Below, piece after piece: positions 12,001 to 50,668 of a stretch of DNA of 64,000 nt. Position numbers and translations under genes: made by a program. The notes beneath the pieces were generated by a model. That model was not told the origin of the DNA, searched no databases, and saw nothing but the letters and a program-made list of their open reading frames with translations. How positions within the stretch are numbered: the stretch's first letter is position 1; each line of letters starts with the position of its first letter. Where the stretch lies: NCBI GenBank assembly GCA_000165345.1, contig CM000431.1:576001-640000 (forward strand), written 5' to 3'.

Positions 12001-15000
12001 GATACAGTATTTAGTAATAGTAGAATTTACCATCATGCATCTATTTCAAACTCTAGAATACTTAGCAAGGATGAAGTAGATAAACAATGTTTCCCAAATT
12101 TAGTGGATTATTTAGAAAAGTATTCATCAAAAGATACAATGGAAGTCCCCATTGACAATATTTACAAAATGATGAATGAAATTGGTCTACAATATCAAAA
12201 AAATTATCAATGCCTTAAAACTGTAAAAGTAAAAATTGATAATAGCAACGATGAAAAAAAAATAAAGAGTTCAGGAAGCAATCAGATAAATGAGGTATTC
12301 TGCTATGTTAAGAGGCCAATAAGTGATTTTGACCTAACTGAGCTTAGGATTCACCCTGGAATGCTTGATTCAGTATTTCAAGCATCCTCAGTTTTGTTTG
12401 CCTCTGATGAGTTATTAGAGGGCAAAGATACGACAAAAAATAAGAGAGGACATGTTGCAATGGCTCCAATTGGATTCACTAAGTGTTTTTATGGAAGAAT
12501 ACAACATAATTCTGATGTTTGGGGTCTAGTGAAATTAAATCGATTTGAAAAAAAAGGAAATATAGCATTTATTGATGTAACTTTGTGGGATAGCAAAACA
12601 AATATTTTGGCAGCGCATTTCCAAGATTTAATTTTAAAAGGATTTTCGAACGCAGCATCGTTACTGTCCCAAGAAGTCAGAATTCCAAACCAGTTTTTGT
12701 GGAGAACTTATAATAAAAAGATAGTAGATAGAACTAATTATATTGAAAATAGCAGTACATTTGAACAAGAAAATAAAGAAGATCAAGATAAAGAGTTCAA
12801 CAGTGAAGACTCCGATCATGATAACCAAATCCAAAAGATTCTTATCTTTGGAATACCAACTGTAATTAAGGAATTGATTTGTAGTAAAATGGACAATAAA
12901 TACAAAAAGATTTCAACCACATTTATTTGTTTAGAAGAAGATCTAACGATTGACCTGATTGATCAGAAAATACAAGAAGAAAACTGGTCTGCTATGTTTT
13001 ATTTAGGTGGTTTAATGGATAATCTCTCAAGTAAGCAAGTTATGGGCGATATTTTAAAAATATCGCAGGTAATTTCAACTATTTCTGTATCTATTACAAC
13101 CGCACCATTTGTTTGTTTAACTTCATTTAATGATTGCAAAGAAGATGGGAACATTCCTAGACATTCAGGAATTAAAGGTTTTGTGAAAACAGCTAGAGTT
13201 GAACTTGAAAATGTCATAGGAAAATCAATAAACATTTCTCATATTGAGTGCAATTCGAGTTTGGTAAACGATCCAGAAACTCTTATGAGGACAATAAGTT
13301 ACATAGCCTCAATATATGAAGGAAAGATTGAAGAGGAAATTACTTTGGAAAGAGATTTAACTATATCTGAAAGTGGAATTTATGCCCCCAGATTAGAAAG
13401 TATTAATTTCCCTGTTTTTGGTGCAATTAAATTAACAATGTCATCTAGGGGAGCAATTGGAAACCTTAAATTCAAGCCACAACCACAATCTGAAAGAGTA
13501 AATCCACCTGCAAATACTGTTGAAATTAGAGTAAGGTCAATCGGACTTAACTTTAGAGACGTATTAAATGTTATGGGATTGTATCCCGGTGACCCTGGAC
13601 CTCCCGGCGGTGATTGTTCTGGTACTGTTGTCGCTGTTGGTGAAGGCGTTAAGCATATTAAAGTTGGTGATAATGTATTTGGAATTGCTCCTGGATGCTT
13701 AAAAACTTATGTTATCACTGATTCAAATTTGTTATGCAAAATTCCAAAAGGATTTACCTTCGAACAAGCTGCTGCGTTACCAGTTGTTGCAACTACAGTT
13801 GAATATTCTCTTAGAGATATTGCGAATATTAAAAAAGGAGATATTGTTCTAGTTCATGCAGTTACTGGTGGCGTAGGATTAATGGTTGTTCAATATTGCA
13901 AAGCAATTGGTGCTAAAGTATACGGCACAGCTGGAAGCGAATCTAAAGTTGAATATGCACTTTCTAATGGTGTTGAGAGGGTAAGCAGCTCAAGAAATGC
14001 TGATAAATTTAAAGAGGACATGAAAGATTTAGAGGGAAAAGTTGATATTGTAATCAATTCATTGATCGAAGACTTTATTCCAAATTCTTTGAATTTATTG
14101 AAAAAAGGTGGTTGTTTTGTTGAATTAGGAAAAAGAGGAATATGGACAGAAGAAGAGATGAAAGAAAAGAGACCTGATATTAAGTATAAATGTGTTGCTG
14201 TTGATGTAATGATGGAGGAAGATCCTTCTTGGTTTGGAGGAATGCTAACAAGAATAAAAAATTTGGTAGAAGAAGGAATAATCGAGTCATTACCATTGAA
14301 GGTGTATGATATGAGAGGTTCAGATGAGAATGGAATAGATGCATTCAGATATATGCAAAGAGCGCAACATATAGGAAAGGTTATCATCAAAATTCCAACT
14401 CCTTTCAAATATTTAGAATTGGATACGGAAAATCATAAGTTAAACAACGTTGGTTCTGAAAAAGAAGATAGACACAACAATGAATATGGCATTCATGTGA
14501 TTACTGGAGGATTAGGAGGAATTGGAAGGATTATTATCAAGTGGATGTTAGAAGAAGGAGTTAGAAAGATTGCAATTTTATCAAGAAGTGCTAATAATGA
14601 TTCTTTAAGAGATATCCCAGAAATAAAGGATTATTTGAATACAGATATTATTCAAATAGAATGCATAAAATGTGATGTTTCGATATTGTCACAGGTAGAG
14701 AGTGCATTTAGGGAGATTTTAGTTAAATTTGGAGAAACGAACCAAATACATGGAATATTCCATGCTGCAGGTATTCTGATGGATGGAGCAATTGCTTCTC
14801 AAACAATGGAAATGATGGAGTCAGTATATGCACCCAAGGTATATGGAGCATGGAATCTACATGAGTGTTGTGAAAAGTTTGAATTGAATAAAAATTTGAA
14901 GCACTTCGTGATGTTTTCTTCAGTTGCATCATTACTGGGTAATTTTGGTCAAACAAACTACTCTGCAGCGAATTCTTGTTTAGATTCATTGGTTGAATAT

Positions 15001-18000
15001 AGAAGAAATAAAGGAATGTGCGGAACTAGTATACAATGGGGTCCCTGGATTGAACAAGGAATGGCAGCAAATCTTAAACAACATTTAGAGAAGGTTGGAA
15101 TGTATGGCATATCCAATGAATTGGGTATTCGTGTTTTGAACGACATTCTATGCTTTGTATCAAAAAGTAGCTCTGTTATTGGTTGTCAGTCACTGAAATG
15201 GGATACGTTTATGCGCCGTTACAATACGATACCAACATTTTTAAGTGAAGTCGATTACAGTTCTCAGGGTAGATCACAAGGTCGTGTTGACATAAGCAAG
15301 CTGTCTGACGAGGAATTGGTTGTTGTCATTGCTCAAGTTGCTCAACAGTGTGCTAGTTCTCCGACATTACCAAGCCCAGATACTGTTTTGTTAGATTTAG
15401 GATTGGATTCATTGGGAGCTGTTGAATTCAGGAATTCAGTACTTGAAATGACAGGAGTTAAATTGCCGCAGACACTTGTTTTTGAAAACCCTACAATATA
15501 TGCAATTTCTATGTATGTAAGGGATCAAAATTCAGGAAACTCTACAAAATCAGATTCTAAAAAACATTCCCAGACTTCAAACGAACAAGCAAAGATGACA
15601 ATTGAGCAGTGGCTTCTATCTTCACTCAAACAGTCAGAAAGGTATATTTTATATGCTGAAGCTTTTGAAAAAAAATACCAAACAATCAGTAATTTAATTA
15701 CTGAGACTGATATTATTAGTGCATTAGAAGAGTTGGGAGTTGAAAATAATCAGGATTATGATCTATTATATGTTTCTTGGAATGAATTAATTTCTTCTGA
15801 AGAGGAAAATAGTAAGAAGCAAAATGATAGCAATAGCAAAAAACTTGAACAGGAGTTAATATTCGATCCTATTGCGGATGTAGAAGAGATCAAAAATTCC
15901 ATGAAATTAGATTTGGATGGGATATCAACAACAACTGACCCATCAGAGTTCAAAACCGCACTTTTGACAGGTGTAACAGGATTTGTTGGTAGAATATTGC
16001 TCGTGAAACTAATTGAAGAGTTTAAGAATATGCAGATTGTTTGTCTTGTAAGAGCAAGCAGCTCTGAAAAAGGCTTAGAAAGAATAATTAATGTTTGTGA
16101 AGAGGCAGAAGTGTGGAATCCAACCTATGCTTCTAGGATTATTGTCGAATGTGGAAACTTCGAAGAGGAGTATTTAGGACTTTCAGAAGAGAGATATTAT
16201 GAATTATGTAAAGAAATCGACGTTGTTTATCATATTGGAGGTGATGTTAATCTATTAAGTAATTACAAGAGATTAAGAAAAACAAACACTCTTTCACTTG
16301 TTGGTATAATAAATTTTTGTACAACTATCAAGCTTAAGCACTTGCATTTCTCTTCTACACTTGGACAGTTTCCAGCATTTTTTGCGGTATTTACCAGGGA
16401 GTTTGAAAATGCAGTTGTTAAGGAAACAGAAGGGCCATCTACGAGAGAAATGAGCAGATTGTTTCCTCCTACAAGACAAGGGTATCCTTGGAGTAAGTGG
16501 GCAGCTGAACAAATATTAGAAACTGCTCATCAACAAGGACTTCCACTTTCAATTTACAGACTGCCAAATACATATATTGCATCAGATACAGGTTATACAA
16601 ACAAAACTGATTATGCAACAGCTTTATTGATCGCTTCAATTTTGGAGGGTATGTTCCCTATTGGTTCATCAACTGCGCCATTGACACCTGTTAATACAAT
16701 ATGTGAAATAATAATATCTGCATCTAAAAAGAAAGAAAGGAAGCATTGGAGATATAACTTATTAGACACAAGAATTTTAGGAAAAAAACATGTTGAAGCT
16801 TGGGCATCTCAATTAGGGCTAGGAAATTATAAAGGCGTTGCTATTGATGAATTCTTCAGTGCAATTAAAAGTAGAGGGCCAGAAAGCCCAATTTTCAAAT
16901 TTGTACCATTAATGCAATACTGGAGGCACTATTGGTTTGATAATACTGAAAGAACTCAACCTTTTCCAGTAGATACATCGAATGTTTCTGAAGATATGCC
17001 TGAAATTTCATGGCCACCGTTGGAGATTACTTTTCAAAACTCATTTTTATACTGCGCAAAAAGAGGTTATTTCCCATCAAACTCTTCTTCAATTTCCTTC
17101 ACTCCAATTAAATGTTACAGCGATGCTTTAAATGAAATTAAAGCAGAATTAAGTTTAAGAAATGTTAATTTCAACCAGAATAAGTATGATTTTATTTGCA
17201 GAAAAATGCAAAAAAATGCAGACTCGATTTACGATTCATTAAAAAAAGTTTCGCTCAATTTCTGTGCTAAATATTCTTACTACATACTTCTGAAGCAATC
17301 TATAGTAAATCAATATATTGTTCAAGAGTCCCTCAATGATTCAATTTTAGAAAAGTTTAAAATGATGGATTGCTACTTTATTACGGGAACATCGTTTGAG
17401 GAAATATTGGAGTTGAGAAGAGTAATCAGAAAACTACTAAATAATTATAATGAATTAAAATTTGTTGACATTGCTTGTCCTTATCTTCCAACGAAGAATT
17501 CAAGAAGACTTATTTTAGAACAACTAAAAATCGCAACATCTATTTTACCATTAAAAAGATTCGAAGCTGTGGATTTGGATGAAATATTGACAGACGACTC
17601 CATTTTGTTAGAAATGTTTATGTTTGCTCCGTTTACCTTACCATTGATATATGGAAAAGAGTATTTTGAAGAATACAAAAATAAAATTACAGGTTGTTCA
17701 GAGGTAATGGAAGCATATTCATCGTTTAAAAATTACATTATTCAAACTCTAATAAAGAATAATTACAATACTGAATATCCGATTATTTTTAGTTCTCCTT
17801 TCCATTTACCTTTTGTAAAAGAAATTTTACAGATTTTTGAGAACTCTAAAATTATTGTTGTTGATAATAAACCAGATAATTCGACCATTCAAGGGAAGTT
17901 GTCAATGGTAAAATCTTTAAAATCAAAATATACGAATCTAGATGTTAGCGAAGAAGAAAATTCAGAGGTATATTTGCTAGACATCCTTGAGGAAATGAAG

Positions 18001-18138
18001 CATAGATTTGTTATCAATGAACCCAGCATTGATAAAAATAGGCTAATTTATCTCAAAGATTTTGGAGAGATACACAATGAAAAGATAAGTGTACAGTTAC
18101 AAGATTTCTGTTCCACGAGTATAGACAGTAGATTTTAA
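1..18138 (+). CDS. Type I multifunctional fatty-acid/polyketide synthase, C-terminal ~6045 codons (5' end outside window), intronless
   Basis: The frame is open from nt 1; the track ORF starts at a GTG at 109 only because of the start-codon rule. Stop codon at 18136-18138. Domain order inferred from motifs: ER-KR-ACP, then two full KS-AT-DH-ER-KR-ACP modules, then an NAD(P)-binding thioester reductase and a ~370-aa C-terminal tail. This architecture (three full modules plus terminal reductase) matches what is described for the Cryptosporidium FAS1/PKS1 megasynthases; it cannot be assigned to FAS1 or PKS1 from this partial window. Confidence 0.9.
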   Translation, partial: NENICIPNNSGLWGLAKSANLEISSLLTNFSQPIKSVDLEITDFSDNQYLRKTIGSLVRWIGNFEYSSLKEKENLIFKFEREFSITSKNIYVNRINKFHKQIVGPVELFMQNRGSISNLSLIESEPIQLEKLNDYEVVMRVKSIGLNFRDVLNVMGLYPGDPGPPGGDCSGTVVAVGEGVKHIKVGDNVFGIAPGCLKTYVTTDSNLLCKIPKGFTFEQAAALPVVATTVEYSLKDIANIKKGDIVLVHAVTGGVGLMVVQYCKAIGAKVYGTAGSESKVEYALSNGVERVSSSRNADKFKEDMKDLEGKVDIVINSLIEDFIPNSLNLLKKGGCFVELGKRGIWTEEEMKEKRPDIKYKCVAVDVMMEEDPSWFGGMLTRIKNLAEEGIIESLPLKVFDMRGSDENGIDAFRYMQRAQHIGKVIIKIPYLAGIGDNSIPEECLITGGSGSLGLVLTETLLNEGITNISIISRSGIESQSDSIKAKWEKLFKRILNNKNGNSGIRFFNIDIGNKDSVYKLINTEFKNLKHIFHLAGVLSDSNIETQTRESIEEVFKPKAIGAWNLHNICEELGLNKELKTFVMYSSIASGLGNFGQTNYSAANSCLDSLSQYRVSKGLSSRSIQWGAWDEDGMAMNIRQHLGLVGMSPISKTTGQQVIFDLITTQIYEENRKSATIMCLPIKWKTYINTIYSGENIPQFSLVNTNLRTKRQQNTILLKMSKEERETYIEKQIISLSKSILGVEIKSLDQPLQDIGIDSLAALEFRNALSKKFNIKLSATTLFDYPTIRGIKDHISEKLSVKESIYETNKTQISNLILSQDNLSDDNVGVIAGLACRFPGGCNTPDTLWKSLIRGYSINPLSGKMFNSVGGAFCASREIPIQRWNHNLVYNADPDKTGKCYSYKACFIDSIDMFDNSKFGITNIEAKHMDPQQRIVLETCYEALVAAKIKEETLIGFQMGVFIGCCSNDWSFLQSRKGMAPFTGTGAANTTISNRVSYVFGMRGPSMTVDTACASSLTAACIAMDSFRNKECNGAIVGGVNALLSPNLFIAFCKARMLSVDGKCKTFDASADGYVRGEGCGAIVILKQSEQKKQNTPILGRIKGWGCNHVGRSASLTAPNGPAQTCVIKMALNQSKLNSSDIDYIETHGTGTALGDPIELGALKSVFGRNADYKRSTPLVLGALKSNIGHLEGAAGIAGLIKLVLVLKHETAIRIAHLTKINPHLDLEDFNVIIPQKTVSLKCNKNKLIGGVSGFGFGGCNTHVIVESTEKNKSEDIEAADFSKNHILFVFTGQGSQYINMCKGIYETEPIFRENMNLCNEIVSKILNISLLDIIYPIDGNKDAEFKAMNMLNDTRYAQPAIFAVEYSLAQLWISKGIKPDSVLGHSLGEFIAATISQVMTIEDALTLVTHRASIMASTPALDGIMVACRLTESQVVDTIKRFGLEESASLAAVNGQKSVTISGKKESVYKILEYNNVGSRFRRLDVSHAFHSPLVSEASDKFSKLLENIELKKPTVEFISTVTGKKEIESISTAKYWSKHILNTVRLSDAVYHAIESVNSRMTFIEITSKPILSQLLKALIPVNSSHISVKCTCKLVNSEIDFIQPLEEMQEFGSENSSFTNHANNLDDDSWRFKLLKRRQISWSDISHPIIAPLHDFNDIEWVKENISISKSNARELVEKLEFTCMISPELLDLFDNHKVLGQSILPGAAFVDFMATVALNYTKSQFTLGVIGAMPDWIQLKGIFFRNPFIMSSAKQYKYLNTQFDSQDYSDEDNSSRSSDFNIIMSKGNNCQISIESSLKMDEETVVYATCDEVEYVSSIEAQTKSLCIISEWPSSELISNSKKVSQEDIYEKMSIAGLQYGSRFKTLKEMWKVTSNSAVGIIQSELFTKNCAESPDNLAVYESIMNERGFTIHPTLLDGVLHMCASILGDQSDKETFNELHKRATMVPISINKCLITSKIDTSKYIKGEKYWAFVQLKSSDKDSAIVNVALKSMSGVPIAVLLGVSLRSVKNGVISTHTIKHVIPNELLWRIDWDEVIESITNSEIVSLPTKVNCDNTENESYQGINANLVEKRKVLLLTNSCNISKKELYSEYFTADIVCEASKLSLAEIEATIYGRDDQELPPSPSNEAKYDLICLHIPNSDKNKAIVSLLPVLYLCKILRSMFENKERLIPRVRIITENIFNVDGMNLEFRTNSGVAPFIKSARQELELFSDQSVSLGLIDIETAEDLNKAIILSFVKDILCFKKREDITSNGTLTESQRLFLNTEYEPELVLKKKIKGKEDNCEAHYRIITPKLVSLRGEAAIIGSCKLNLSSRGAINNLELLPLSNEERKCPSANTVEIRVRSIGLNFRDVLNVMGLYPGDPGPPGGDCSGTVVAVGEGVKHIKVGDNVFGIAPGCLKTYVTTDSNLLCKIPKGFTFEQAAALPVVATTVEYSLKDIANIKKGDIVLVHAVTGGVGLMVVQYCKAIGAKVYGTAGSESKVEYALSNGVERVSSSRNADKFKEDMKDLEGKVDIVINSLIEDFIPNSLNLLKKGGCFVELGKRGIWTEEEMKEKRPDIKYKCVAVDVMMEEDPSWFGGMLTRIKNLVEEGIIESLPLKVFDMRGSDENGIDAFRYMQRAQHIGKVIIKIPTPFKYLELDTENHKLNNVGSEKEDRHNNEYGIHVITGGLGGIGRIIIKWMLEEGVRKIAILSRSANNDSLRDIPEIKDYLNTDIIQIECIKCDVSILSQVESAFREILVKFGETNQIHGIFHAAGILMDGAIASQTMEMMESVYAPKVYGAWNLHECCEKFDLNKNLKHFVMFSSVASLLGNFGQTNYSAANSCLDSLVEYRRNKGMCGTSIQWGPWIEQGMAMNIKQHLEKVGMHGISNEMGIRVINDVILYQNTDLDKNSLGKYPVITCQSFNWNVYMRQLYYNSKYPSFFKDVVASMSTGEVKNIGMDFRGMSKEEVYSYVKDSVHNIVEQIIGIQSSTLDLDTPFSELGMDSLSAIELRNALISRFGIKISSTALFDYPTLRSIIQHLTDSLYVSETRDAFSDLGMSISEREYSVAIIGVSCRLPGRVKSFNDLYEIVLLKSKDCITEIPLDRWPFDLYYDPDPDNRSKSYVNQGAFITDIDLFDNTFFGLSSTEATNVDPQQKYMLEVAYEAMYNSGITKRSLTSIKKTAKTGDDPVLMGVFIGCCNTDWHFLQAKFGFENFTSYTGSGGASSLVSNRVSYSFGFRGPSQTIDTACSSSLVAMDAALKSLKEGSCHTALVGGVNLMLSPHLFVAFCRARMLSPDCRCKTFDASANGYVRGEGCGAILLTKRSEIGGKKIRPIAYVLGSATNHNGRSASLTAPNGPSQTEVIQNALRNARLTPNDIDYLESHGTGTPLGDPIEFGALKTVFGNKKDIKRSQPLILGALKTNIGHLEGAAGVSGLLKLILVLKNRIAPKILHFQKLNPHIDTENFDVEFPTELKPIISNKSKLVGGVSSFGFGGCNSHVILESASANELNTESSQNKNYPYLIFAYTGQGCQYINMCKQLYDTEEVFRNEMDKCNELLYPILGRSLISTIYCEKTMESEKLINHTSISQPAIFSIEYSLTKLWESKGIVPSAVMGHSLGEFAAAVTSGILCLKDAITLVARRAEIMASLPQNDGIMVACRVSEDQVLDSINKLNLKDSAAVAAINGPKSVTISGSRSSVMQVLNNLGMEDRYKQLDVSHAFHSPLVSSAEEKFEKVIENIQFFEPKLTFFSSVTGNIESKLLIENKYWAQHIIHSVRYYDALETAISTDEENIAIIEIGPKSVLTSMGKQAVGGIQLVQSSNENISNNELTWIPTIDNSKSNTIDFNDALKAAREYIKYISESVCVHKWNHSRFHWADLTSVHPLLGKFYSSISDENYLAYSTDMLKSKVFKNIVEDHVIFDTNIIPAAALIEASACAAFKLQRSEKFPSKYVEMDSMDIEKPLVSNQDETTSEMEVFVAKSGAIQIRKKCISEAFEYEEEFSGPQIIANDTVFSNSRIYHHASISNSRILSKDEVDKQCFPNLVDYLEKYSSKDTMEVPIDNIYKMMNEIGLQYQKNYQCLKTVKVKIDNSNDEKKIKSSGSNQINEVFCYVKRPISDFDLTELRIHPGMLDSVFQASSVLFASDELLEGKDTTKNKRGHVAMAPIGFTKCFYGRIQHNSDVWGLVKLNRFEKKGNIAFIDVTLWDSKTNILAAHFQDLILKGFSNAASLLSQEVRIPNQFLWRTYNKKIVDRTNYIENSSTFEQENKEDQDKEFNSEDSDHDNQIQKILIFGIPTVIKELICSKMDNKYKKISTTFICLEEDLTIDLIDQKIQEENWSAMFYLGGLMDNLSSKQVMGDILKISQVISTISVSITTAPFVCLTSFNDCKEDGNIPRHSGIKGFVKTARVELENVIGKSINISHIECNSSLVNDPETLMRTISYIASIYEGKIEEEITLERDLTISESGIYAPRLESINFPVFGAIKLTMSSRGAIGNLKFKPQPQSERVNPPANTVEIRVRSIGLNFRDVLNVMGLYPGDPGPPGGDCSGTVVAVGEGVKHIKVGDNVFGIAPGCLKTYVITDSNLLCKIPKGFTFEQAAALPVVATTVEYSLRDIANIKKGDIVLVHAVTGGVGLMVVQYCKAIGAKVYGTAGSESKVEYALSNGVERVSSSRNADKFKEDMKDLEGKVDIVINSLIEDFIPNSLNLLKKGGCFVELGKRGIWTEEEMKEKRPDIKYKCVAVDVMMEEDPSWFGGMLTRIKNLVEEGIIESLPLKVYDMRGSDENGIDAFRYMQRAQHIGKVIIKIPTPFKYLELDTENHKLNNVGSEKEDRHNNEYGIHVITGGLGGIGRIIIKWMLEEGVRKIAILSRSANNDSLRDIPEIKDYLNTDIIQIECIKCDVSILSQVESAFREILVKFGETNQIHGIFHAAGILMDGAIASQTMEMMESVYAPKVYGAWNLHECCEKFELNKNLKHFVMFSSVASLLGNFGQTNYSAANSCLDSLVEYRRNKGMCGTSIQWGPWIEQGMAANLKQHLEKVGMYGISNELGIRVLNDILCFVSKSSSVIGCQSLKWDTFMRRYNTIPTFLSEVDYSSQGRSQGRVDISKLSDEELVVVIAQVAQQCASSPTLPSPDTVLLDLGLDSLGAVEFRNSVLEMTGVKLPQTLVFENPTIYAISMYVRDQNSGNSTKSDSKKHSQTSNEQAKMTIEQWLLSSLKQSERYILYAEAFEKKYQTISNLITETDIISALEELGVENNQDYDLLYVSWNELISSEEENSKKQNDSNSKKLEQELIFDPIADVEEIKNSMKLDLDGISTTTDPSEFKTALLTGVTGFVGRILLVKLIEEFKNMQIVCLVRASSSEKGLERIINVCEEAEVWNPTYASRIIVECGNFEEEYLGLSEERYYELCKEIDVVYHIGGDVNLLSNYKRLRKTNTLSLVGIINFCTTIKLKHLHFSSTLGQFPAFFAVFTREFENAVVKETEGPSTREMSRLFPPTRQGYPWSKWAAEQILETAHQQGLPLSIYRLPNTYIASDTGYTNKTDYATALLIASILEGMFPIGSSTAPLTPVNTICEIIISASKKKERKHWRYNLLDTRILGKKHVEAWASQLGLGNYKGVAIDEFFSAIKSRGPESPIFKFVPLMQYWRHYWFDNTERTQPFPVDTSNVSEDMPEISWPPLEITFQNSFLYCAKRGYFPSNSSSISFTPIKCYSDALNEIKAELSLRNVNFNQNKYDFICRKMQKNADSIYDSLKKVSLNFCAKYSYYILLKQSIVNQYIVQESLNDSILEKFKMMDCYFITGTSFEEILELRRVIRKLLNNYNELKFVDIACPYLPTKNSRRLILEQLKIATSILPLKRFEAVDLDEILTDDSILLEMFMFAPFTLPLIYGKEYFEEYKNKITGCSEVMEAYSSFKNYIIQTLIKNNYNTEYPIIFSSPFHLPFVKEILQIFENSKIIVVDNKPDNSTIQGKLSMVKSLKSKYTNLDVSEEENSEVYLLDILEEMKHRFVINEPSIDKNRLIYLKDFGEIHNEKISVQLQDFCSTSIDSRF
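409..1290 (+). other. Enoyl reductase (ER, MDR/zinc-ADH-like) domain, module A
   Basis: VVMRVKSIGLNFRDVLNVMGLYPG...; NADPH fold motif VHAVTGGVGLMVVQYCKAIGAKVYGTAGS. Confidence 0.8.
451..1270 (+). repeat. Intragenic direct repeat copy 1 (ER coding segment, ~0.82 kb)
   Basis: Nucleotide sequence from gtattaaatgttatgggattgtatcccggt... onward is near-identical to 7075-7900 and 13561-14386; only a handful of substitutions. Confidence 0.9.
1318..1930 (+). other. Ketoreductase (KR) domain, module A
   Basis: Rossmann motif ITGGSGSLGLVL; SDR-type YSAANSCLDS region. Confidence 0.75.
2160..2390 (+). other. Acyl carrier protein (PP-binding) domain, module A
   Basis: LGVEIKSLDQPLQDIGIDSLAALEFRNAL with phosphopantetheine-site Ser in DSL. 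Confidence 0.8.
2476..3815 (+). other. Ketosynthase (KS) domain, module B
   Basis: Active-site Cys in TVDTACASSL; HGTGTALGDP and NIGHLEGAAG His motifs. Confidence 0.85.
3850..4740 (+). other. Acyltransferase (AT) domain, module B
   Basis: FTGQGSQY entry motif; GHSLGEF active-site Ser. Confidence 0.85.
4930..5800 (+). other. Dehydratase (DH, hot-dog) domain, module B
   Basis: HxxxGxxxxP motif HKVLGQSILPGAAF; C-terminal LDGVLHM segment. Confidence 0.7.
7039..7905 (+). other. Enoyl reductase (ER) domain, module B
   Basis: Same motifs as ER of module A; nucleotide sequence almost identical. Confidence 0.8.
7075..8580 (+). repeat. Intragenic direct repeat copy 2 (ER+KR coding segment, ~1.5 kb)
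   Basis: Near-identical to 13561-15066 over ~1.5 kb, and to copy 1 over the ER part. Offsets between copies are 6624 and 6486 nt. Confidence 0.9.
7990..8600 (+). other. Ketoreductase (KR) domain, module B
   Basis: ITGGLGGIGRII Rossmann motif; YSAANSCLDS. Confidence 0.75.
8870..9080 (+). other. ACP domain, module B
   Basis: LDLDTPFSELGMDSLSAIELRNAL. Confidence 0.8.
9160..10480 (+). other. Ketosynthase (KS) domain, module C
   Basis: IDTACSSSL active-site Cys; HGTGTPLGDP; NIGHLEGAAG. Confidence 0.85.
10520..11400 (+). other. Acyltransferase (AT) domain, module C
   Basis: YTGQGCQY; GHSLGEF. Confidence 0.85.
11590..12420 (+). other. Dehydratase (DH) domain, module C
   Basis: HPLLGKF...IIPAAALIEAS hot-dog motif; IHPGMLDSVFQ. 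Confidence 0.65.
13525..14390 (+). other. Enoyl reductase (ER) domain, module C
   Basis: Third near-identical ER copy. Confidence 0.8.
13561..15066 (+). repeat. Intragenic direct repeat copy 3 (ER+KR coding segment, ~1.5 kb)
   Basis: See copy 2. The copies diverge at ...aaacaacatttagagaaggttggaatg... Confidence 0.9.
14475..15085 (+). other. Ketoreductase (KR) domain, module C
   Basis: Nucleotide sequence identical to the KR of module B over about 0.6 kb. Confidence 0.75.
15300..15500 (+). other. ACP domain, module C
   Basis: LLDLGLDSLGAVEFRNSV. Confidence 0.8.
15940..17000 (+). other. Terminal NAD(P)-dependent thioester reductase (R) domain
   Basis: LLTGVTGFVGRILLVKL glycine-rich NAD-binding motif immediately after the last ACP; YPWSKWAAE (Y..K) region. 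This is the chain-release domain expected at the C-terminus. Confidence 0.7.
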
Positions 18139-23962: not shown

Positions 23963-24157
23963 ACTGGACCATTGTGAACAAAATGTATAAATAAGTTGAA
24001 TATGCACTAATAATTTTATCGGATAATTTTTGTTTCAAAAAAACTTATATTTACCCTCAAAATATTGCCGGTAATTACAGATGGAAACCCACAGAAATTA
24101 TTTGAGGAATATTTTTTGACAAAAATAAATAACACTGTAATTGAGTTTTTCGTGATA

Positions 24158-24605
24158 ATGGAGAAAAGATTTGATCTGAGATACTGTGAAAAATTTCCAA
24201 ATGATTCACTATTAAACGGATTTGCTCCAAGAGATCTTGGTACAAAACCAAAATGCTTGCCACAGCAGATTCAAGAAACTGTAAGTTGGGAACAATAACT
24301 TTTCGAATATTGAATAATGCCATTTCTCTTAGGGGTTCATTCGGACATTAGAAAATGAGTTGAATATGCTTAGTGCTATACAAGGTTATCACTCAGCTGC
24401 AAAATCAAGAATGGAACAGGATTTAGTTTCGAAGGTTCAAAGACATCCAGGAATTCCAAGCTCTCACTTGAGCCTTGATCTACTAATGAATATGGATGAC
24501 AAGATCGAAATAAGCGATATTCTAGGCACGGAGAAACCTATCAATCCATTGGGCAAGAAGACAATCAGCGACACATTAGAGTCAATATTCAATATCAATA
24601 GTTAA
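24158..24605 (+). CDS. Hypothetical protein, 2 exons (24158..24280, 24333..24605) joined over a 52-nt GTAAGT...TTAG intron
   Basis: Track ORFs 24065..24298 and 24360..24605 become one frame when 24281-24332 is removed (donor ACT|GTAAGT, acceptor TCTCTTAG|GGG). The first ATG is at 24158, so the start is uncertain. No family recognised. Confidence 0.45.
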
Positions 24606-24708
24606 ACATAGGCTCTCTCTACAACATTAAAAATATCTAATTTAGCAACAGAGAAACCCGGATATTACTAAGGACTAGATGCAATCTAACTCGTCGGTAG
24701 TTATTCAA

Positions 24709-25155
24709 TTACTCTGCCTCTTCTCTCTGCTTCCTCAAACGTGCAATCGTCGATCTAGCAGTAACTGCTGCCGCAGTGCTTAGCTGCCATGCACCTCCTG
24801 CCAAGACCTTTCTGCAACCCTTGCATTCCCAAATTCCACAGGCAGTTCTCTTTGTCGCTGTTTTTCCACAGAATGGACAAACATATGTCTCACGTTGTAG
24901 GATCTCAGTCTTCTTCACTTGCTTACGTAGAGAAGCACCATATCTAGTGCCAAATTTACCAACAATACCAACCTACAATAAAAAGGAAATGAGAAAATAT
25001 GAAGGATCCATAATGATAGGGGTCGAGATCGAAGAGTAAGATATGGGTTCTGAATGTCGAACATTTAGTTCAATAGAGGGATACTAAGAAGTTTACTCAT
25101 AAGATCGTCATCCTCCTGCTCAAATGTAACTTACCTTCTTAGTTCTTCTACCCAT
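24709..25155 (-). CDS. RPL37A: 60S ribosomal protein L37a (eL43), 2 exons (25155..25135, 24972..24709), 162-nt intron
   Basis: Exon 1 ATG GGT AGA AGA ACT AAG AAG|GTAAGT (MGRRTKK). Exon 2 [38 protein letters not shown]...C4 zinc ribbon. Matches eL43 ([24 protein letters not shown]...). Confidence 0.85.
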
Positions 25156-25691
25156 TTTCTTTTAATCACTTGAAACTAAAGTTAGTGCTCTGAAACGCTT
25201 CGTTTATTAAATCCCTATGAGACGGTTTATTTTAGCGCGTTGTCTCGATTTATACGCGGTAAATGCACGTATTTTAGCATTGGAATATTACTTTGCAAAA
25301 ATATTTAACAGGAGTCAAAACAATAAAAAACTGTAAAAAAGAATGAATTCTGAACTAATTAGTAGGAATATTGCTTGTACAACAAAATTATCTCAATTTA
25401 AGCTTAGATTTCCCACCTTAAGCGAATGTCAGAGCGCCATCTTAGTAATAGATACCAGCCTATTTGTACGTATTTCATAAAACTAAAAATCAAATTAGAG
25501 TTTTATTTTTAAAATATTTTCCTTGAGATTTCACGTTAGGGCTGAATAGACTTAATCATGTAATGCGCAACTCACCGCCTAATAATACACACATAGATGT
25601 CGCATGTAATAAATCTTTTTTTCCCTCTTTCCTACGAAACATTTCTCTTGGCTAATTTTTTTCAACTTTATAGCAATACATAATTGTAGTC

Positions 25692-26114
25692 ATGTCTGAA
25701 TTGGAAGCCCTGAGCAACCAAAGTACTGAGCGTGGAGTTGTTCAAGAGAACTCCACAGAAAAGATGGATGCAGCAGAAAATCCAAACGAAATTTCAGTAG
25801 ATAACAATGCCGCCATTGAGCTATTAAATGTTAATTTGCAGGACATGTTCGCCAACTCCTTCATTGGTGCTAACGTTGTTAATGCCACAAGAATGCAAGA
25901 GACTATTGGCGAATCTTGGCCATTTGACCAATATCAGGCAACCGGCTTGTTGCCAGTAGATTATGCGTACTGGCTTACGCCTTATAATACTTCAATAGGC
26001 CCAACTGCATTTGTTATGATGCAGGCCACAGCAACATTCCCAGATGGCACTCAGATGGATGCACAACAAGCGAGAGCACGAAGAAGACGCCATGTATTTG
26101 GTGTGTGTTGTTAA
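25692..26114 (+). CDS. Hypothetical 140-aa protein ending in a polybasic stretch plus Cys-Cys (..RARRRRHVFGVCC)
   Basis: ATG-initiated ORF with locally higher GC and no recognisable family. The C-terminal CC after a basic run resembles a prenylation/palmitoylation signal. Confidence 0.35.
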   Translation: MSELEALSNQSTERGVVQENSTEKMDAAENPNEISVDNNAAIELLNVNLQDMFANSFIGANVVNATRMQETIGESWPFDQYQATGLLPVDYAYWLTPYNTSIGPTAFVMMQATATFPDGTQMDAQQARARRRRHVFGVCC

Positions 26115-26235
26115 TTACTAGGCATAGATTTATGAAAATATCATTAGAGAAAATAAGTTTAAAACATTGGATGTATAATTTCTATTAAGCTATAATATAT
26201 TACTATTTCAAGTAGCACATTTAATATTGTAAACG

Positions 26236-29783: not shown

Positions 29784-30349
29784 TGTTCAATTAACTTAAT
29801 TGACCATTAAAAATAGTCAAGCAATTATTTTTGAGCAAAATTTACCGTTGATCAAAATTTTATTTTGAATACAAAAATTATCTTATATATACTAGCTAAA
29901 TAATTTTGACTCATTAAGCCAGTTATAAAGAGAAATCAAATCTTGGTTTTCGGTATTTTGAATGGCGTTTTTATCATTAATTATATACTGGAGGAAGTTT
30001 TTTAATTGATAAGTAAGGCCTTTTATGGATTTAATAATTCTGATTTTTTTATCCATTATTTTCAATAGACTAGATATTCTTTCAATTTCATATGTAGCTA
30101 TTGCATTTCTCAGAGATAATTTCAAAACGTAAATCTTCAATGCGTTTATACCTGAAATATTGTCTAAAAATCAAAATAATTAGTGTATAAATTTATGGTA
30201 AAACGTACTGGGATTAGTTTCGGCCTCACAAAGGGATTTAATTGAAGAAATTAGTCCCTTCAGAATATTCCGTTTATAATGCATGCAGTTATCACGCATC
30301 TTATCTTATTCATCATAACTCAGATAAAAGGGAAACCATTGCGCGATGA

Positions 30350-30360
30350 GGGGGGGGGGG
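30350..30360. repeat. G11 homopolymer (C11 on the minus strand)
   Basis: gagggggggggggc seen directly. Very unusual in a ~30% GC region. It lies just 3' of the last confident exon of the ORC/Cdc6-like gene. Confidence 0.9.
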
Positions 30361-30404: not shown

Positions 30405-32759
30405 TTAAAATTTACAGTATCTACTAGCAATATCCAATATTTTTCTGTAGACTAAATCAATGAAGCAACTTTCTAGATTCGAGGGAATACCATTGTTAGA
30501 GTATTCAATTAGTAGCTTTAAAATAAGAAAACCTAAGTCATTTGCGATCCCCTTAGCAACTGACGGTGTGAATCTCTGTTCGATGTAAGACGCAACGTCC
30601 TCGATTAGCCTATCAATCCTATCTGGGGAAACTTTAATTGGCACCTTCTTCGAGAATCTAGCCAATAGAGGCCCCAAGTGAAAGTTTAGCATATTAACAA
30701 CTTCTCTTAAGTTCCATTCGCCGCAGCCTGGAAGAGACAAATGAATGAAGAATCTGTAGGGCTACACAAGTTATTTCAGCTAAAAGACATCGGTGGATTT
30801 AAATAACAGCTCAGACAAATGCCTCGATTGTAATCAACACTAGCCATATGGCTAATGCAATTGATACAAGATAACTGGCAAACCCTTCGATAAGCCCGCT
30901 ATTATATCAAATTCATGCTCGTCATCTGATTTATCATCATTACCAGATAAATCCACGCAAGAAACAACATACCTGAAACATTCTGGTGCAAACAATATTT
31001 TTACTTGTAGATGTGCCAAAAATCATTATTTCTGAATGCATCCATTTGTTCGAACGAGATATAATATCAAAAAAAAACATCAATGAAAGAAGCGTATTGT
31101 TTTCTTCTAGCAAATACTGATCTATATCTTCAATGACCAATATATATTTACGTTTTCTTGTACAAACATCAATAATTTCTTTCAAGTATCTTTCAAAAAA
31201 TCCAATAGTTGCGTTGAAAATGTCTGCAGTATGTACGTATTTAATACTATAGTTTAAAGAGTCGGCAATTGAAGAGACGAGAAAGCTCTTACCTAAACGG
31301 TGATAAATATTTGTTAAATTAAATACAGGCATCAAATTTAAGGCTCAAATTTTCAACATGAAGAATTAGTGACCTATCATATAGTTATTTTCTCATTTGC
31401 CTGACTAAAATAAAACTTACCACAACCCTTGTCACCGAAAACAATAATACCAGACGCTTCATTAAAAACTATAGGAAGTCGAAAGTTCGATATTTCTGAA
31501 TATGAAATACAGGGGAGCAAAAGATTCTTTATTTTGTGAATTACTTGGCCAAAGCCAGTCATTTGAATTAATCCATTTTTGCATGAACCGCTCTCTCTAT
31601 CACAGCTAGAATCACAAATTGTACAATTTGAATTACTGACTGATTTATTCAATCTCCTGATAACGAAGTTAAAATAATATAAAAATACATTAAAAAAGTC
31701 AGGTATTACACCATTGAGGACTATTGCAACAAATCTACCGCACGAAACAGTGTATGGAATATCATGCAGTTCTTCATTTAAAACGTCAGCGATGCGAACC
31801 AGGTCAATCTCATTTACAATGAATTTCAATTCTTCATTGGATAAAGCCATAATATATTTGGAGTGAATGCTAGAAATTTTTTCCATCAGACAATTCAGAG
31901 AAATTTCATTTATATCATATCTTTTATAAATTAAGAACCTTAATAAGGAAATTTTATCGATCTGGAGCGAGAAGTTTCTGAAATCTATTTCAAAAAATTC
32001 TCCATATCCATACTTAAATATATATCTTATATCCATAGTCTTTGACTGTAAAATCTTATTCGATGTGCCATAGTCATCTGGGTCTATATCCGAAATAAAA
32101 AATGAAACAATTGGAATATTTTTGTTATCCCAAATACGGATAAATTTAGAGATCAAATTAAGAATAACTATTTGTTTTGAAACATCACCATAGTAGTTAC
32201 TATTTGGTCCTGTGTAATATTTATTTGGATTTGCACTTCTAAAACAAACCAATATGGCAGGAGGGGAAAAAGGTCCACTGCATAATGAGTCTCTTAAGCG
32301 CACCCCTACTTTTGATATAGACGTTAATTTATTATTCAAATAATAAATCTTCTTGTCAAAACAATCAGTAGTTCTCGTATCAATAAAATATTCATCAATT
32401 GATATATTGAAAGTCACGGGATTAAAGGATTTTGAGTTTTCAAAGTAACAAATCTTTGAGAAGCTAGATAACAATTCTCTTGCAAAGTATCTCTTTCCAG
32501 ATCCACTATTACCTATTAGAATCAAAACTTTCGGAAGTCTGTCAATGAAAAGGTTAATACCCACTTCAGTCGTGTCAATATCACAAAAATTAGTCTCATA
32601 TCTTTTTAGCAACAATAGATAGAATATCGACCCAATTTTTTCAAAGAAATCATCAAGCAATGGGCCGCCTACAAATGATTCATCCAGTTCCAATCTCCAT
32701 TTAAAAAGAAAAAAGGAGATCCATCTCAGAGGAATCTCGTCGTACTTGTCCCAATACAT
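30405..32759 (-). CDS. Divergent ORC1/Cdc6-like AAA+ ATPase with two tandem P-loop modules; at least 3 exons (32759..31421, 31292..30973, 30761..30405), 3' end uncertain
   Basis: Walker A GNSGSGKR in module 1. In module 2 Walker A is GDKGCG|KS, split by a 128-nt GTAAGT..TTTAG intron, and Walker B is YILVIEDID. ORC/Cdc6-type wording LLSLMFFFDIISRSNKWMHSEIMIFGTSTSKN and CTRMFQ|PYRFFIHL is split by a 211-nt GTATGT..TAG intron (compare ORC1 LGLTRMCFQPYTY). Intron positions are supported by restored motif continuity. Further 3' exons are possible (see ORF 29892..30140). Confidence 0.5.
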
Positions 32760-32979: not shown

Positions 32980-33373
32980 TTAATAATGACTTTTATTATT
33001 GAAAAACAGCACTGTTAAATATCTATTTAATGTTAACCTCTCAAATTAGATTTAAATTAACATACCTTCCAGAAACTTGAAAACCAGAAAGCTGTTTCAG
33101 CGCACTTTTTGCATCCTCAATCTCATCATATACTACAAATGCTGTGCCCTTTGTATCTTCACCTACACCTCTATTTCAGACTCTTCATGAACAAGAAATT
33201 TTGTTAGCCTTACCTTCTTATTTGTCTAATTGTTCCATGTCTCCCAAAAATGTCGTAGAGATCGGTAGAAGAGATATCATATGGAAGTTGCCTAAGGTAA
33301 ATAATAGATGAATTTAAAACAATGCATTTTACATTTCGTACCTTACATATAGAATTCGGCTATTATTAGACAT
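32980..33373 (-). CDS. SF3B6: Splicing factor 3B subunit 6 (SF3b14a/p14) RRM protein, 4 exons (33373..33342, 33291..33214, 33170..33066, 33022..32980); introns 50, 43, 43 nt
   Basis: Absent from the ORF track. Spliced product [85 protein letters not shown] aligns along its length with human SF3B6 ([76 protein letters not shown]). Donors AG|GTACGA, AG|GTAAGG, AG|GTATGT; acceptors ..CCTTAG, ..GAAATAG, ..TAAATAG. Confidence 0.8.
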
Positions 33374-33547
33374 TGAGTAGTTTAAACTAAACAAAATCGG
33401 ATAATGCCTTAGTAATATATTCTTAATGTTATAAAAGTTACCTTAAATAATACTATTATATTGCCATAGCTTAAAATTAATGTCAATAATAGTAATAGTT
33501 CAAATATAGGCGGTGTGTAAGTAGCGCTTTCCTACACACAATTTTAC

Positions 33548-33556
33548 TCGCGCGTG
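33548..33556. promoter_or_regulatory. TCGCGCGTG box in the divergent SF3B6/PDE spacer
   Basis: GC box about 80 nt upstream of the PDE ATG. Confidence 0.3.
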
Positions 33557-33631
33557 CAACGTAGAAGTTATAATATTGCGGAATGTCGCACCATCGATTT
33601 CCTCTAATCCTCATCTAAGGATAATTTCAAG

Positions 33632-36625
33632 ATGAGTGGGTTAGCCAGCTCTCCCTCTATTGGGAAGACAATACTATTTGAGAAGAATAACGATTGGGGG
33701 CTTAATTTTGATTTGGGCGAGCTCGAAATATATGAAAATCAGGACTTAAAAACTAGACTAAAGGAATTAATTTCGCCATTCGAAAACACATTTTCTTCTG
33801 TATCTACTCTAGAATACTTGCATCCATTTACATTGAAGTTCCGAAGCGAGATTTTGGAAAAGAAATTTGAAAAAAAATTTAGAAAAAGAACAGAAATTGG
33901 TATTTTTTGGATTGGATTGCTAACATTATTTTTAATAATCTTGGATATCTTATTAGAAGTTTACAATCAAAAAGTAAATGAAGTTTCTAATAGTTCAGTA
34001 ACTGCTTATTTTATAATTTGTGGTGTAGTTGCAACATGCTCATTATTTCTAATCATATCATTTTTCGTCAATTTCTTAAATAAACATTTGGAAGTTATAT
34101 TTACATCAACTACAATAATAACAACAATACTTAATATTACAGCAGGAAATTTATTACTAGATGTCTCACTTTCCCCTAATAATAACTACGATCCTGCTGT
34201 CCAGAATTCCAGATCACTTATTGTAATCACAATTTGCTCGATTCTGCATTTTATGTTACCAATTTCTTTTATGAGTATATTAATTTATTCAATAACGAGT
34301 ATCTCATTCTATATTATATTGGTCCCTTCTATGCTGATGCCTATTCCTAACGAAACTCAATACGTATCCACAACAATTTATCTTTTTGTGTTCTGTTTTG
34401 TATGTATTTTGGCTAAAAGAGTTAACGTGAGCTCTTCTAGAAGAGACTTTTTTAACATTAATTTAGTTAAAGCAGAAATGCAAATATTGGAGAATTCTAT
34501 GAATCAAACACCTAAATCTACAATGATCGAAGGAACATTAGCTAACATCAATAAGGTTCAACTATTTCTTCGCTATTTAAATACTTCCTGCACAAAGGGA
34601 ATAAATCGTAAAATGTTACATGACGCAATGGTAGACCTGACTTCTGCTCAAGTCACTTTATGTAGGTCAGATGATATTTATGCAGTTGATCCAGTTGCGA
34701 TTTTCCTACCGCAGTCACTTCAGTCAAATGTGCCGCAAACCCCTAGACAATCTAAGGTTAGAATAATAGGTAGTGGAGATGTAACTCCAAAAGAAAATTG
34801 CTCTCCAACTGCTTCTCAAAAGATAAAACAAGAGTTGGGTATATCTTATGATGTTAGAATTCCTATATCTCCTAATTCTCCAAAGTCAATGGGGCAGTTT
34901 TTATCTCCAAAGTCGCACGAGAACAAGTCAAGTTATATAAGCGTTGATTCCATATCAGCCAGAAGGAATACAGAATCAAGGGCTACTGTTACATCGATTC
35001 CTGGCCCTTCTCGTCGAAGACTCTCAATGATGATTGCTACTGCAGGAGAGAACTCTTCAACACTTATTGATCCGTCCGTTGAAAAGGTGAGAGAGTATAT
35101 TACTGCAGAATTTACTAAATCGTCTGCATCTAGAAGAGAGGTTTTATATGCTTCTAAAGTTTTTGATGGACCGGCCGCAAACCCAAGCAATACTAATGAA
35201 AAGATCAAGACTACATCTCAAAATTTGGATACAAATCATATAGTGGAAAGTATGATTTCCCGTCAAGGACCCTTAGATGAACCTGCAGTTGGTGGAGATA
35301 TTGAAGATAATTATAGACATCTTTTAAAGAATAAGCGTAAGATAGCTCACTTCGCAACTCATCTAGCTTCAAAACTCATTTCTATTAAAGATCCTTCTGG
35401 AACAATCTCATTATTAAGTCAATCATATTTTAATGAAACTAATCCACATAATTTTACGCTACCTGAACTTCCCAAAGGTGTTGGTACAGAACTTCATTCT
35501 GATTTAGATAGGGCATTGCAACTTATGAATAACCAGTATTCTTCTAATTGGGATTTGGACATGTGGAGGCTAAACGAATTAACAAAAGGTAATTGCCTTT
35601 CAGTGGCAGGACTATATATGCTACACTTGATTGCATTAGAAGAAAAAAACCAGGAATCTGGCTTTGATTCATCTAACTTGCCTAGGGGAATTACTACAGC
35701 ATATTCTTCTTCAATTACTGCTCCTTCGAAGCTAATTGGCAATATATCCAAATTCAATATATTTTTTCGAGAATTAAATATTAGATACCTCAACAATAAA
35801 TACCATAACGAATTACACGGCACTAACGTATGCCATCTTGCAATTTGCCTATCAAGAGCGACTGGATTATGGAGCCATTTAGACACTGTAGAGAGGCTTG
35901 CCTCAGTTATTGCATCTCTTGGGCATGATGTAGGCCATATTGGTAGAACAAGCAATTTTCTTGTAAATTCAAGACATATGCTTGCAATTAATTATAATGA
36001 TCGATCTGTCCTTGAAATGTTCCATGCATCCCTAACGTTTCGGATAATCTACTATTATGGAGGCGGAGCTGCTGATTTTTTGCAAAGTTGGGACGCAGAA
36101 CTCCACAAAGAATTTAGAAGAATAGTTATTGAATTAATATTAGAGACAGATATGCATAGGCATTTTGAATGCGTTTCTAGGTTTAGAGTGAGAAGGCAAG
36201 CAGTTGATTGGGACCCATACGGAGATGCTCAAGATAGGCTAATGCTTGCTAGGACATGTTTAAAAGCTGCAGATATCGGACATGGAGCATTGAAATGGAA
36301 TCAACACTATAAGTGGTGCAGATCTGTTGTAGAAGAATTTTTCCTACAAGGAGATGAGGAGAAAGCATTATCGCTGCCCATTTCTCCAATTTGTGATAGG
36401 GAATCTACAGATGTACCAAAGTCGCAGGTTGGATTTTTAAATTTTGTTTGTCTTCCATTGTTCCAAGAATTATGCTATGTAGATGTGGAGGGTGATGTGA
36501 GAAGATGTATTGATCGAATTTTGGAAAATATTAATAACTGGGAAGACATAGCTGAGGCAGGCATTCAGTGGGATAGTGAAGATGCATTAACATTTGTTTC
36601 AGATGAAAAAGCTGATTTACAATAG
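33632..36625 (+). CDS. 3',5'-cyclic nucleotide phosphodiesterase with an N-terminal multi-pass transmembrane region (apicomplexan-type PDE)
   Basis: PDEase signature YHNELHGTNV...LGHDVGHIGRTSNFLVNS (HD..H......N.F motif) in the C-terminal half. Several hydrophobic helices between residues ~90 and 250. Confidence 0.8.
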   Translation: MSGLASSPSIGKTILFEKNNDWGLNFDLGELEIYENQDLKTRLKELISPFENTFSSVSTLEYLHPFTLKFRSEILEKKFEKKFRKRTEIGIFWIGLLTLFLIILDILLEVYNQKVNEVSNSSVTAYFIICGVVATCSLFLIISFFVNFLNKHLEVIFTSTTIITTILNITAGNLLLDVSLSPNNNYDPAVQNSRSLIVITICSILHFMLPISFMSILIYSITSISFYIILVPSMLMPIPNETQYVSTTIYLFVFCFVCILAKRVNVSSSRRDFFNINLVKAEMQILENSMNQTPKSTMIEGTLANINKVQLFLRYLNTSCTKGINRKMLHDAMVDLTSAQVTLCRSDDIYAVDPVAIFLPQSLQSNVPQTPRQSKVRIIGSGDVTPKENCSPTASQKIKQELGISYDVRIPISPNSPKSMGQFLSPKSHENKSSYISVDSISARRNTESRATVTSIPGPSRRRLSMMIATAGENSSTLIDPSVEKVREYITAEFTKSSASRREVLYASKVFDGPAANPSNTNEKIKTTSQNLDTNHIVESMISRQGPLDEPAVGGDIEDNYRHLLKNKRKIAHFATHLASKLISIKDPSGTISLLSQSYFNETNPHNFTLPELPKGVGTELHSDLDRALQLMNNQYSSNWDLDMWRLNELTKGNCLSVAGLYMLHLIALEEKNQESGFDSSNLPRGITTAYSSSITAPSKLIGNISKFNIFFRELNIRYLNNKYHNELHGTNVCHLAICLSRATGLWSHLDTVERLASVIASLGHDVGHIGRTSNFLVNSRHMLAINYNDRSVLEMFHASLTFRIIYYYGGGAADFLQSWDAELHKEFRRIVIELILETDMHRHFECVSRFRVRRQAVDWDPYGDAQDRLMLARTCLKAADIGHGALKWNQHYKWCRSVVEEFFLQGDEEKALSLPISPICDRESTDVPKSQVGFLNFVCLPLFQELCYVDVEGDVRRCIDRILENINNWEDIAEAGIQWDSEDALTFVSDEKADLQ

Positions 36626-49449: not shown

Positions 49450-50519
49450 CTAAATCTTTTTTTTTAGTGCTCTTTCTCGGATATATTTGGTCTGTGATAT
49501 TCTTATTTTATTCCAAATTGGTCGAGGGATCATATTTGCCTGAATACAAAGTATCAAAAAGTAGTTACACTCTTTATTTTACTTACTATTAATAGTTGTA
49601 TTCGATGACCAAAATAAGGAACAACCGTCGAGTAAACCGATGGAGTTTTTTTAAGCATCTTTATAGATTCAACAGAAAACCTAAGAAACCAATCAAGATG
49701 CTATAAAAATAATAGCTTACTACTTACCTTTTTGTTGAAATTGTGAACAAGGTTTCTCTTTTGGCTTTTGATAGTTTAGTGGTAACTAGTAAAGGAGTAT
49801 GGCATTGGATTGTGATATTCTCGGACTCACATTCCGCTCGTAAACTTCTACATAGAGATTCGGCGACACTTTTTGTAGCGGCATACGCGGAATAGAGAGG
49901 GTCAGTCTGAAGCTGTGACGACCCACTTCCTATACACAAAATGGCTCCCCGATCCCTAAGCATATGCATTATTTATTTAGTAAAGTTTGAAAGCACTACT
50001 CACCTCTTTTTCATGTAGCTGTAAACAATGCGAGTCATCATTAATACAGACCTAACATTCACTTCTATTAATTCATTAATTAGATCCAAACTAGTCTCTT
50101 CAAAATATTGTGCATACGGATATGAGATGCCAACATTATTTATTAGAATCCCAACATCATCAATTGAATTCAAATATCCGCAAAAATTTGAGTAACAAGT
50201 CGGGTCAGTAAAATCCATTAAATAATACCTTATTTCTTGATTTGAATCTGGTTTTTTCAAGGATAGCAACTAGGGCAAGAATTAGTATTTTTGAAGCATA
50301 TTTAAAGCTTACCTCATTTACAACATTTTGCAGCTTTTCTCTATTTCTTCCTATTAAAATTAAGTTTAAATCTTCTTTAAACAATTCCTTTGCCATTGCT
50401 TTTCCAATTCCGTCGCTTGCGCCAGTTATAATTGCCCAACTTCCAAATGAAGTAAGTTTTTTCTCAGGTCTGTTGAGCAAGAGAAATAATTTGTTTATGG
50501 CCATAGAAAGATAATTCAT
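49450..50519 (-). CDS. Very-long-chain 3-ketoacyl-CoA reductase (HSD17B12/IFA38-type SDR of the ER fatty-acid elongase), 5 exons (50519..50313, 50269..50004, 49955..49728, 49680..49587, 49539..49450); introns 43, 48, 47, 47 nt
   Basis: Three track ORFs (50205..50540, 50000..50269, 49724..49969) plus two further exons assemble into a 294-aa protein colinear with human HSD17B12. Matches: WAIITGASDGIGKAMAKEL / WAVVTGSTDGIGKSYAEEL; VGILINNVGISYPY / IGILVNNVGMSYEY; GAILCIGSGSS...YSAYAATKS (YxxxK); HTPLLVTTKLSKAKRETL; C-terminal PIWNKIRISQTKYIREKALKK / PSWIYLKIVMNMNKSTRAHYLKK. Donors GAG|GTAAGC, AG|GTGAGT, AG|GTAAGT, ATA|GTAAGT. Confidence 0.8.
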
Positions 50520-50668
50520 TATTAATTTAATAAAATTCAAGCAAATAATTCCTGCTATTTTACTAATATTAACTCATTGCGGCAGGAATTTTACTTAAGC
50601 ATAAATTCATTTGATCTTTTTTTTCTTAATCTGGAAGATGTTAACATTTATTTTCATATACTTTAAAC

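Follow-up and report, generated by a model that had tools for sequence, protein, structure and literature searches.

The closest described counterpart of the gene analysed here is human SF3B6 (p14/SF3b14a), the seventh subunit of SF3b in the U2 snRNP, which binds a segment of the N-terminal domain of SF3B1 (PMC11874996, PMC8714771). The human protein cross-links early to the branch-point adenosine, cryo-EM places its Tyr22 far off, and its exact role is debated (PMC11874996, PMC8714771). In human p14 the RNA-binding sheet is covered by the third helix, the C-terminal tail and the SF3B1 peptide (PMC8714771). S. cerevisiae and Cyanidioschyzon merolae are among the lineages that lack SF3B6, and a correlation between having the protein and having degenerate branch-site sequences has been suggested (PMC10158995).

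We analysed a 64-kb stretch of Cryptosporidium parvum chromosome 3 (the window) and found in it a small split gene that is very probably the C. parvum orthologue of SF3B6, i.e. the small RRM subunit of SF3b in the U2 snRNP, carrying three short introns and likely docking on SF3B1 near the branch site. Transcription would proceed along the minus strand, after which removal of three phase-2 GT-AG introns would give a 258-nt CDS encoding an RRM protein of 85 aa. By analogy with the human system, this protein would dock on the N-terminal region of SF3B1 and would sit near the intron branch site in early spliceosome assembly.

Two long ORFs flank the gene, at 31377-32759 (minus strand) and 33632-36625 (plus strand). 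A sequence-only reading of this DNA had described the ~870-bp spacer between them as apparently empty; we measured it at 872 nt, and the longest ORF that can be called in it mechanically is 62 aa. Searches of the whole window with Rfam (at the gathering threshold) and ARAGORN gave zero matches, so no RNA gene accounts for the spacer. The same reading had proposed a four-exon gene with introns of 50, 43 and 43 nt and an 85-aa product, and we reproduced this model to the base, on the minus strand from an ATG at 33373 to a TAA ending at 32980, with GT..AG at the ends of every intron (Table 1). All three introns are in phase 2 and each interrupts an AGR arginine codon (AAG|GTA). The RNP2-type motif RILYVRQLPY straddles the junction of exons 1 and 2, the second RNP motif lies in exon 3, and intron 3 carries a branch-site-like motif, TTAAC, about 11 nt upstream of its 3' splice site. 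The plus-strand neighbour encodes a 997-aa PDEase_I protein, and the short region that separates it from the SF3B6 candidate presumably holds the promoters and 5' UTRs of both genes.

Table 1. Exons and introns of the SF3B6 candidate gene, in transcription order, and the adjoining intergenic region (window positions)
Feature	Position	Strand	Description
Exon 1	33342..33373	-	32 nt; ATG 33373-33371; 10 residues and first two bases of Arg11; RNP2/strand beta1
Intron 1	33292..33341	-	50 nt; GTACGA...CTTAG; phase 2, within AGG Arg codon
Exon 2	33214..33291	-	78 nt; helix alpha1 and strand beta2
Intron 2	33171..33213	-	43 nt; GTAAGG...AATAG; phase 2, within AGA Arg codon
Exon 3	33066..33170	-	105 nt; RNP1/strand beta3 and helix alpha2
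Intron 3	33023..33065	-	43 nt; GTATGT...AATAG; phase 2, within AGA Arg codon
Exon 4	32980..33022	-	43 nt including TAA; strand beta4 and very short C-terminal tail
Divergent intergenic region	33374..33631	.	258 nt; common to SF3B6 candidate and PDEase_I gene (33632-36625, +)

For the downstream neighbour (30405-32759, minus strand), GCA_048859185.1 gives an AAA-type protein of 671 aa spread over 2355 nt, so that the introns of this gene must add up to about 340 nt; the ORF of 460 aa at 31377-32759 is no more than its first exon, and this exon taken alone has no Pfam match at E <= 0.01. Elsewhere in the window, an ORF at 24709-24918 (minus strand, in the apparently empty gap 24008-26235) encodes ribosomal protein L37ae/eL43 (Pfam PF01780, 2.2e-23, profile positions 23-85 of 85). 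As the match begins at profile position 23, the first ~22 residues must be on an upstream exon, which makes this another small split gene. A short-chain dehydrogenase (adh_short) at 49724-50540 (minus strand) is distributed over three ORFs in different frames (50205-50540, 50000-50269 and 49724-49969), which implies several exons separated by short introns. A single uninterrupted ORF of 6009 aa, encoding a giant protein, fills the first 18 kb of the window (109-18138, plus strand).

Pfam recognised one RRM_1 domain in the 85-aa protein (1.7e-15, profile positions 1-69 of 70). The tblastn search that the sequence-only reading had suggested, run with human SF3B6 residues 18-94 as the query against the 64-kb window, gave three collinear minus-strand HSPs in three frames (33305-33216, 33157-33059 and 33027-32998; frames -3, -1 and -2) with a joint E of 3.8e-16, and nowhere else in the window did this query match below E = 1. 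Among PDB chains, the best four sequence matches were all human p14/SF3B6 (3lqv at 1.2e-26, 2f9d at 1.5e-25), and the next were multi-RRM proteins that scored at least a million-fold weaker (3e-20 or weaker). The alignment to human SF3B6 is gapless over residues 5-81 of the C. parvum protein with an identity of 44/77 (57%), so that the match, which had been described as almost residue for residue, is indeed free of gaps but was overstated as to identity. In the protein collections searched, the matches were Cryptosporidium proteins followed by dozens labelled 'pre-mRNA branch site protein p14' or SF3B14.

The AlphaFold2 model, built on 42 homologues, shows an entire beta-alpha-beta-beta-alpha-beta RRM (mean pLDDT 85.7), with strands at residues 7-11, 32-37, 47-51 and 75-78 and helices at 19-29 and 54-64, in agreement with the single canonical RRM that characterises the SF3B6/p14 family and that Pfam had recognised. 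As beta1 comes from exon 1 and beta4 from exon 4, an intact domain requires all four exons. When the model was compared with the PDB by Foldseek, the top 10 structures were all human SF3B6 (TM 0.83-0.92, rmsd 1.0-2.1 A, 52-58% identity), whereas RRM structures other than SF3B6 reached an identity of at most 37%. Tyr9, in the motif RILYVR, pairs with human Tyr22, so that the conserved RNP2 tyrosine of the family, which has been implicated in contacting the branch adenosine, is present in C. parvum. The PDB search, Foldseek and the names of the homologues all place the protein closer to SF3B6 than to other RRM proteins. Sequence, fold, synteny and conservation across species bear out the SF3B6/p14 assignment made by the sequence-only reading, and the name on the C. 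parvum records could safely become SF3B6/p14.

We compared the locus in C. parvum with its counterparts in C. felis, C. ryanae, C. bovis, C. canis and C. tyzzeri by searching each exhaustively for combinations of up to three GT..AG introns of 20-150 nt that reproduce the conserved protein. There was exactly one solution per species, with the three introns at identical codon positions throughout. GT..AG was found in 18/18 orthologous introns, which occupy three common phase-2 positions and measure 41-59 nt (47-59 nt for intron 1, 41-50 nt for intron 2 and 43-49 nt for intron 3), mostly not in multiples of 3. The internal exons keep the same lengths (78 and 105 nt) throughout, and the start codon, the stop codon and all six splice sites are intact in every one of the six species, as is the gene order PDE (head-to-head), RRM, AAA. 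Exons and introns differ in how they have diverged. The CDS of the RRM core is 62-81% identical between non-sister species (99% between the sisters C. parvum and C. tyzzeri), and its differences fall mainly at third codon positions, e.g. 9:3:37 between C. parvum and C. canis (chi-square p = 2e-9). The intron sequences are ~35-55% identical between non-sister species, with indels (34-51% for intron 1). The three introns of all six species thus combine a conserved position and phase with free drift of sequence and length, and their removal restores the reading frame. Constraint on the exons together with drift of the introns indicates that the coding exons are under purifying selection and that genuine introns lie between them; the gene is real. 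The splicing model is strongly supported by this comparison; that the introns are excised is what we infer from homology and from the comparative evidence.

The sequence-only reading had also called the gene unannotated, and this did not hold up. An exact-sequence look-up showed that the identical 85-aa protein is already deposited as QOY42581.1 (CPATCC_001230), KAL5369581.1, WRK31466.1 and UniRef100_A0A7S7RH65, under generic names ('RRM domain-containing protein', 'RNA recognition motif domain containing protein' or 'hypothetical protein'). In GCA_048859185.1 (CM109963.1, 1.1 Mb) the gene call spans exactly the same 394 nt between the PDE gene and the AAA-type gene. The gene is therefore already catalogued and ordinary, and is only functionally under-named. 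The 6.4 kb around it in GCA_048859185.1 are the same as in the window save for the length of one homopolymer at ~30343-30353, which has 11 C (minus-strand reading) in the window and 7 in that assembly; this could be strain variation or a difference in assembly or polishing. According to its description (bioRxiv 10.1101/2021.01.29.428682), the IOWA-ATCC re-annotation, to which the CPATCC ids belong, was curated by hand with the help of RNA-seq and comparative evidence, and it lends the gene model indirect support. A literature search for Cryptosporidium SF3B6 found no paper on the gene, the sole match being a survey of Plasmodium RNA-binding proteins.

Other deposited models of this gene are wrong in various ways. 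In Iowa II XP_001388108.1, C. hominis CUV05112.1 and WKS76976.1, intron 2 is the sole intron recognised, parts of introns 1 and 3 are read through, and the records are flagged as partial. In C. hominis PPS93768.1 a boundary of intron 1 is misplaced, intron 3 goes unrecognised in the C. tyzzeri model, and the models of C. canis, C. bovis and C. ryanae are either truncated or extended into intron 3. The deposited products of C. ryanae, C. bovis, C. canis and C. tyzzeri are 89, 57, 83 and 79 aa long, while splicing by the four-exon model yields a full-length RRM protein, 85-89 aa long, in each of these four species. The name 'putative splicing factor 3B subunit 6' has so far been given only to the C. 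felis orthologue. Translated in the frame of exon 2, the 3' end of intron 1 (33292-33312, minus strand) reads SSIIYLR, a mimic of the genuine RNP2 peptide SRILYVR of exon 1. This mimicry is probably the reason that the older models, and also a plain tblastn search, run on into the intron and miss exon 1. The SSIIYLR peptide is not conserved in C. canis, C. felis, C. ryanae or C. bovis, and because of this the resemblance is probably coincidental.

Three other explanations of the locus were weighed against a four-exon SF3B6 gene. If the older public models were correct (XP_001388108.1, CUV05112.1, WKS76976.1 and TRY52624.1), the gene would have two exons or be partial, with intron 1 and/or intron 3 read through. 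Such models do exist as deposited records, and the SSIIYLR at the end of intron 1 resembles the RNP2 motif. However, they have no start codon and carry a partial flag, beta1 and/or beta4 are missing from their RRM, and their read-through peptides are not conserved in C. canis, C. felis, C. ryanae and C. bovis, where the four-exon product is; moreover, the intron sequences that they would translate diverge with frame-breaking indels. The gene might instead be a decaying pseudogene or a chance resemblance, and unexpressed, as the want of any long ORF would allow. Against this stand E-values of 1e-26 to 1e-36, a start, a stop and six splice sites that are intact in six species, and a strong bias of changes to the third codon position. 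We take the contrasting conservation of exons and introns to rule out both the read-through models and a pseudogene, the former being very improbable and the latter hardly credible.

The remaining alternative is a generic single-RRM protein, i.e. a paralogue with another function that is not an SF3B6 orthologue. The C. parvum records indeed say only 'RRM domain-containing protein', and the N- and C-terminal extensions typical of p14 are missing. Nevertheless, the gapless identity to human SF3B6 extends over the whole RRM and stands well above that of any other RRM structure, the top matches by sequence and by fold are all p14, and those homologues that carry names are called p14 or SF3B14. We regard a generic RRM protein as no more probable than the read-through models, and retain SF3B6 orthology as the explanation of the gene.

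About 10.8% of C. parvum genes have introns, with 2.6 exons per intron-containing gene, a mean intron length of 84-99 nt and an intron GC content of 22% (PMC4637869). Three introns of 43-50 nt in a CDS of 258 nt make the SF3B6 gene intron-dense and place it at the short end for C. parvum, although it is not anomalous. The proposal that the gene could serve as an internal control for the intron model seems reasonable to us, although its introns are all below the published mean. We also checked the 18 orthologous introns for a conserved branch-site motif and found no strict consensus among them, but only degenerate YTRAY-like matches at variable distances. Although 18 introns are a tiny sample, this fits the suggested association of SF3B6 with degenerate branch sites. 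Outside the genus, the p14 gene of the diatom Fistulifera solaris also has three introns, at positions and phases that differ from those in Cryptosporidium, and two further p14 genes, from metagenome contigs, are intronless; in this test of whether the Cryptosporidium intron positions are ancient, no shared ones were seen.

One feature of the C. parvum protein is mildly unusual: it consists of an RRM and little else. In an alignment with 41 p14 homologues of 101-141 aa, it was without the N-terminal RLPPEVN segment and without the C-terminal helix and tail, i.e. the flanking extensions of SF3B6/p14 proteins, which are a typical feature of the family that does not decide orthology. The beta4 segment (YLTVLFF or YITVLFF) is conserved in all six Cryptosporidium species and is followed by tails that are short and not conserved, the orthologues ending 4-17 codons after beta4. 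These tails indicate that the RRM-only form is genus-wide and that no exon has been missed. A fifth exon encoding the C-terminal helix was considered and rejected, given the in-frame stop 4-17 codons after beta4 in six species, and the 220 nt downstream of the gene encode nothing K/E-rich or helix-like. The tyrosine equivalent to human Tyr22 is kept in 5/6 species; at the C. felis locus (3001-3448) it is replaced by His (ILHIR vs ILYVR). None of these differences from typical p14 bears on the assignment.

A more far-reaching proposal is that the genus carries a 'minimal' SF3B6 in which Tyr22 is replaceable and, separately, that intron retention could feed splicing capacity back onto SF3B6 output. 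We consider this rather unlikely. If it were true, and if the sheet were exposed or covered by SF3B1 only, this naturally truncated p14 would reveal which of its parts a reduced spliceosome requires where introns are few and branch sites degenerate.

Otherwise the conserved four-exon structure is of use mainly for annotation. It allows the wrong models deposited for C. hominis, C. tyzzeri, C. canis, C. ryanae, C. bovis and the old Iowa II annotation to be corrected, and eukaryote-wide surveys of SF3B6 presence and absence (e.g. PMC8714771) rely on the correct modelling of small split genes such as this one. The case also confirms that, even for a gene this small, the correct multi-exon model can be recovered from sequence alone in an apicomplexan genome that is compact and poor in introns.

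Among the known systems, CPATCC_001230 has the same 85-aa sequence and the same 394-nt span as the gene in the window, and differs only in bearing a generic name. The C. felis SF3B6 (P0002, 101 aa) shares the synteny, the three intron positions and 77% amino acid identity over the RRM core, but its N- and C-terminal tails are longer than those of C. parvum and it has His in place of Tyr22. More distantly, Plasmodium falciparum PfSF3B6 (PF3D7_1224900) is the apicomplexan SF3B6 listed in a survey of RNA-binding proteins (PMC4630921), so the family is recognised in the phylum. With human SF3B6/p14/SF3b14a (PDB 2F9D and 3LQV; also 5Z56, 6FF4 and 7Q4O) the C. parvum protein shares its single RRM, 57% identical over 77 gapless residues, with RILYVR against RILYIR in RNP2 and KGTAFVVY against RGTAYVVY in RNP1, and its predicted fold superposes on the human one at a TM of 0.91 and an rmsd of ~1 A. 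The human protein has 125 aa, however, against 85 aa in C. parvum, where the counterparts of human residues 1-17, RLPPEVN among them, and ~95-125 are missing. Because the elements that cover the sheet of human p14 are among those missing, the Cryptosporidium protein may present its sheet differently, and its mode of action may differ in detail from that of its human counterpart.
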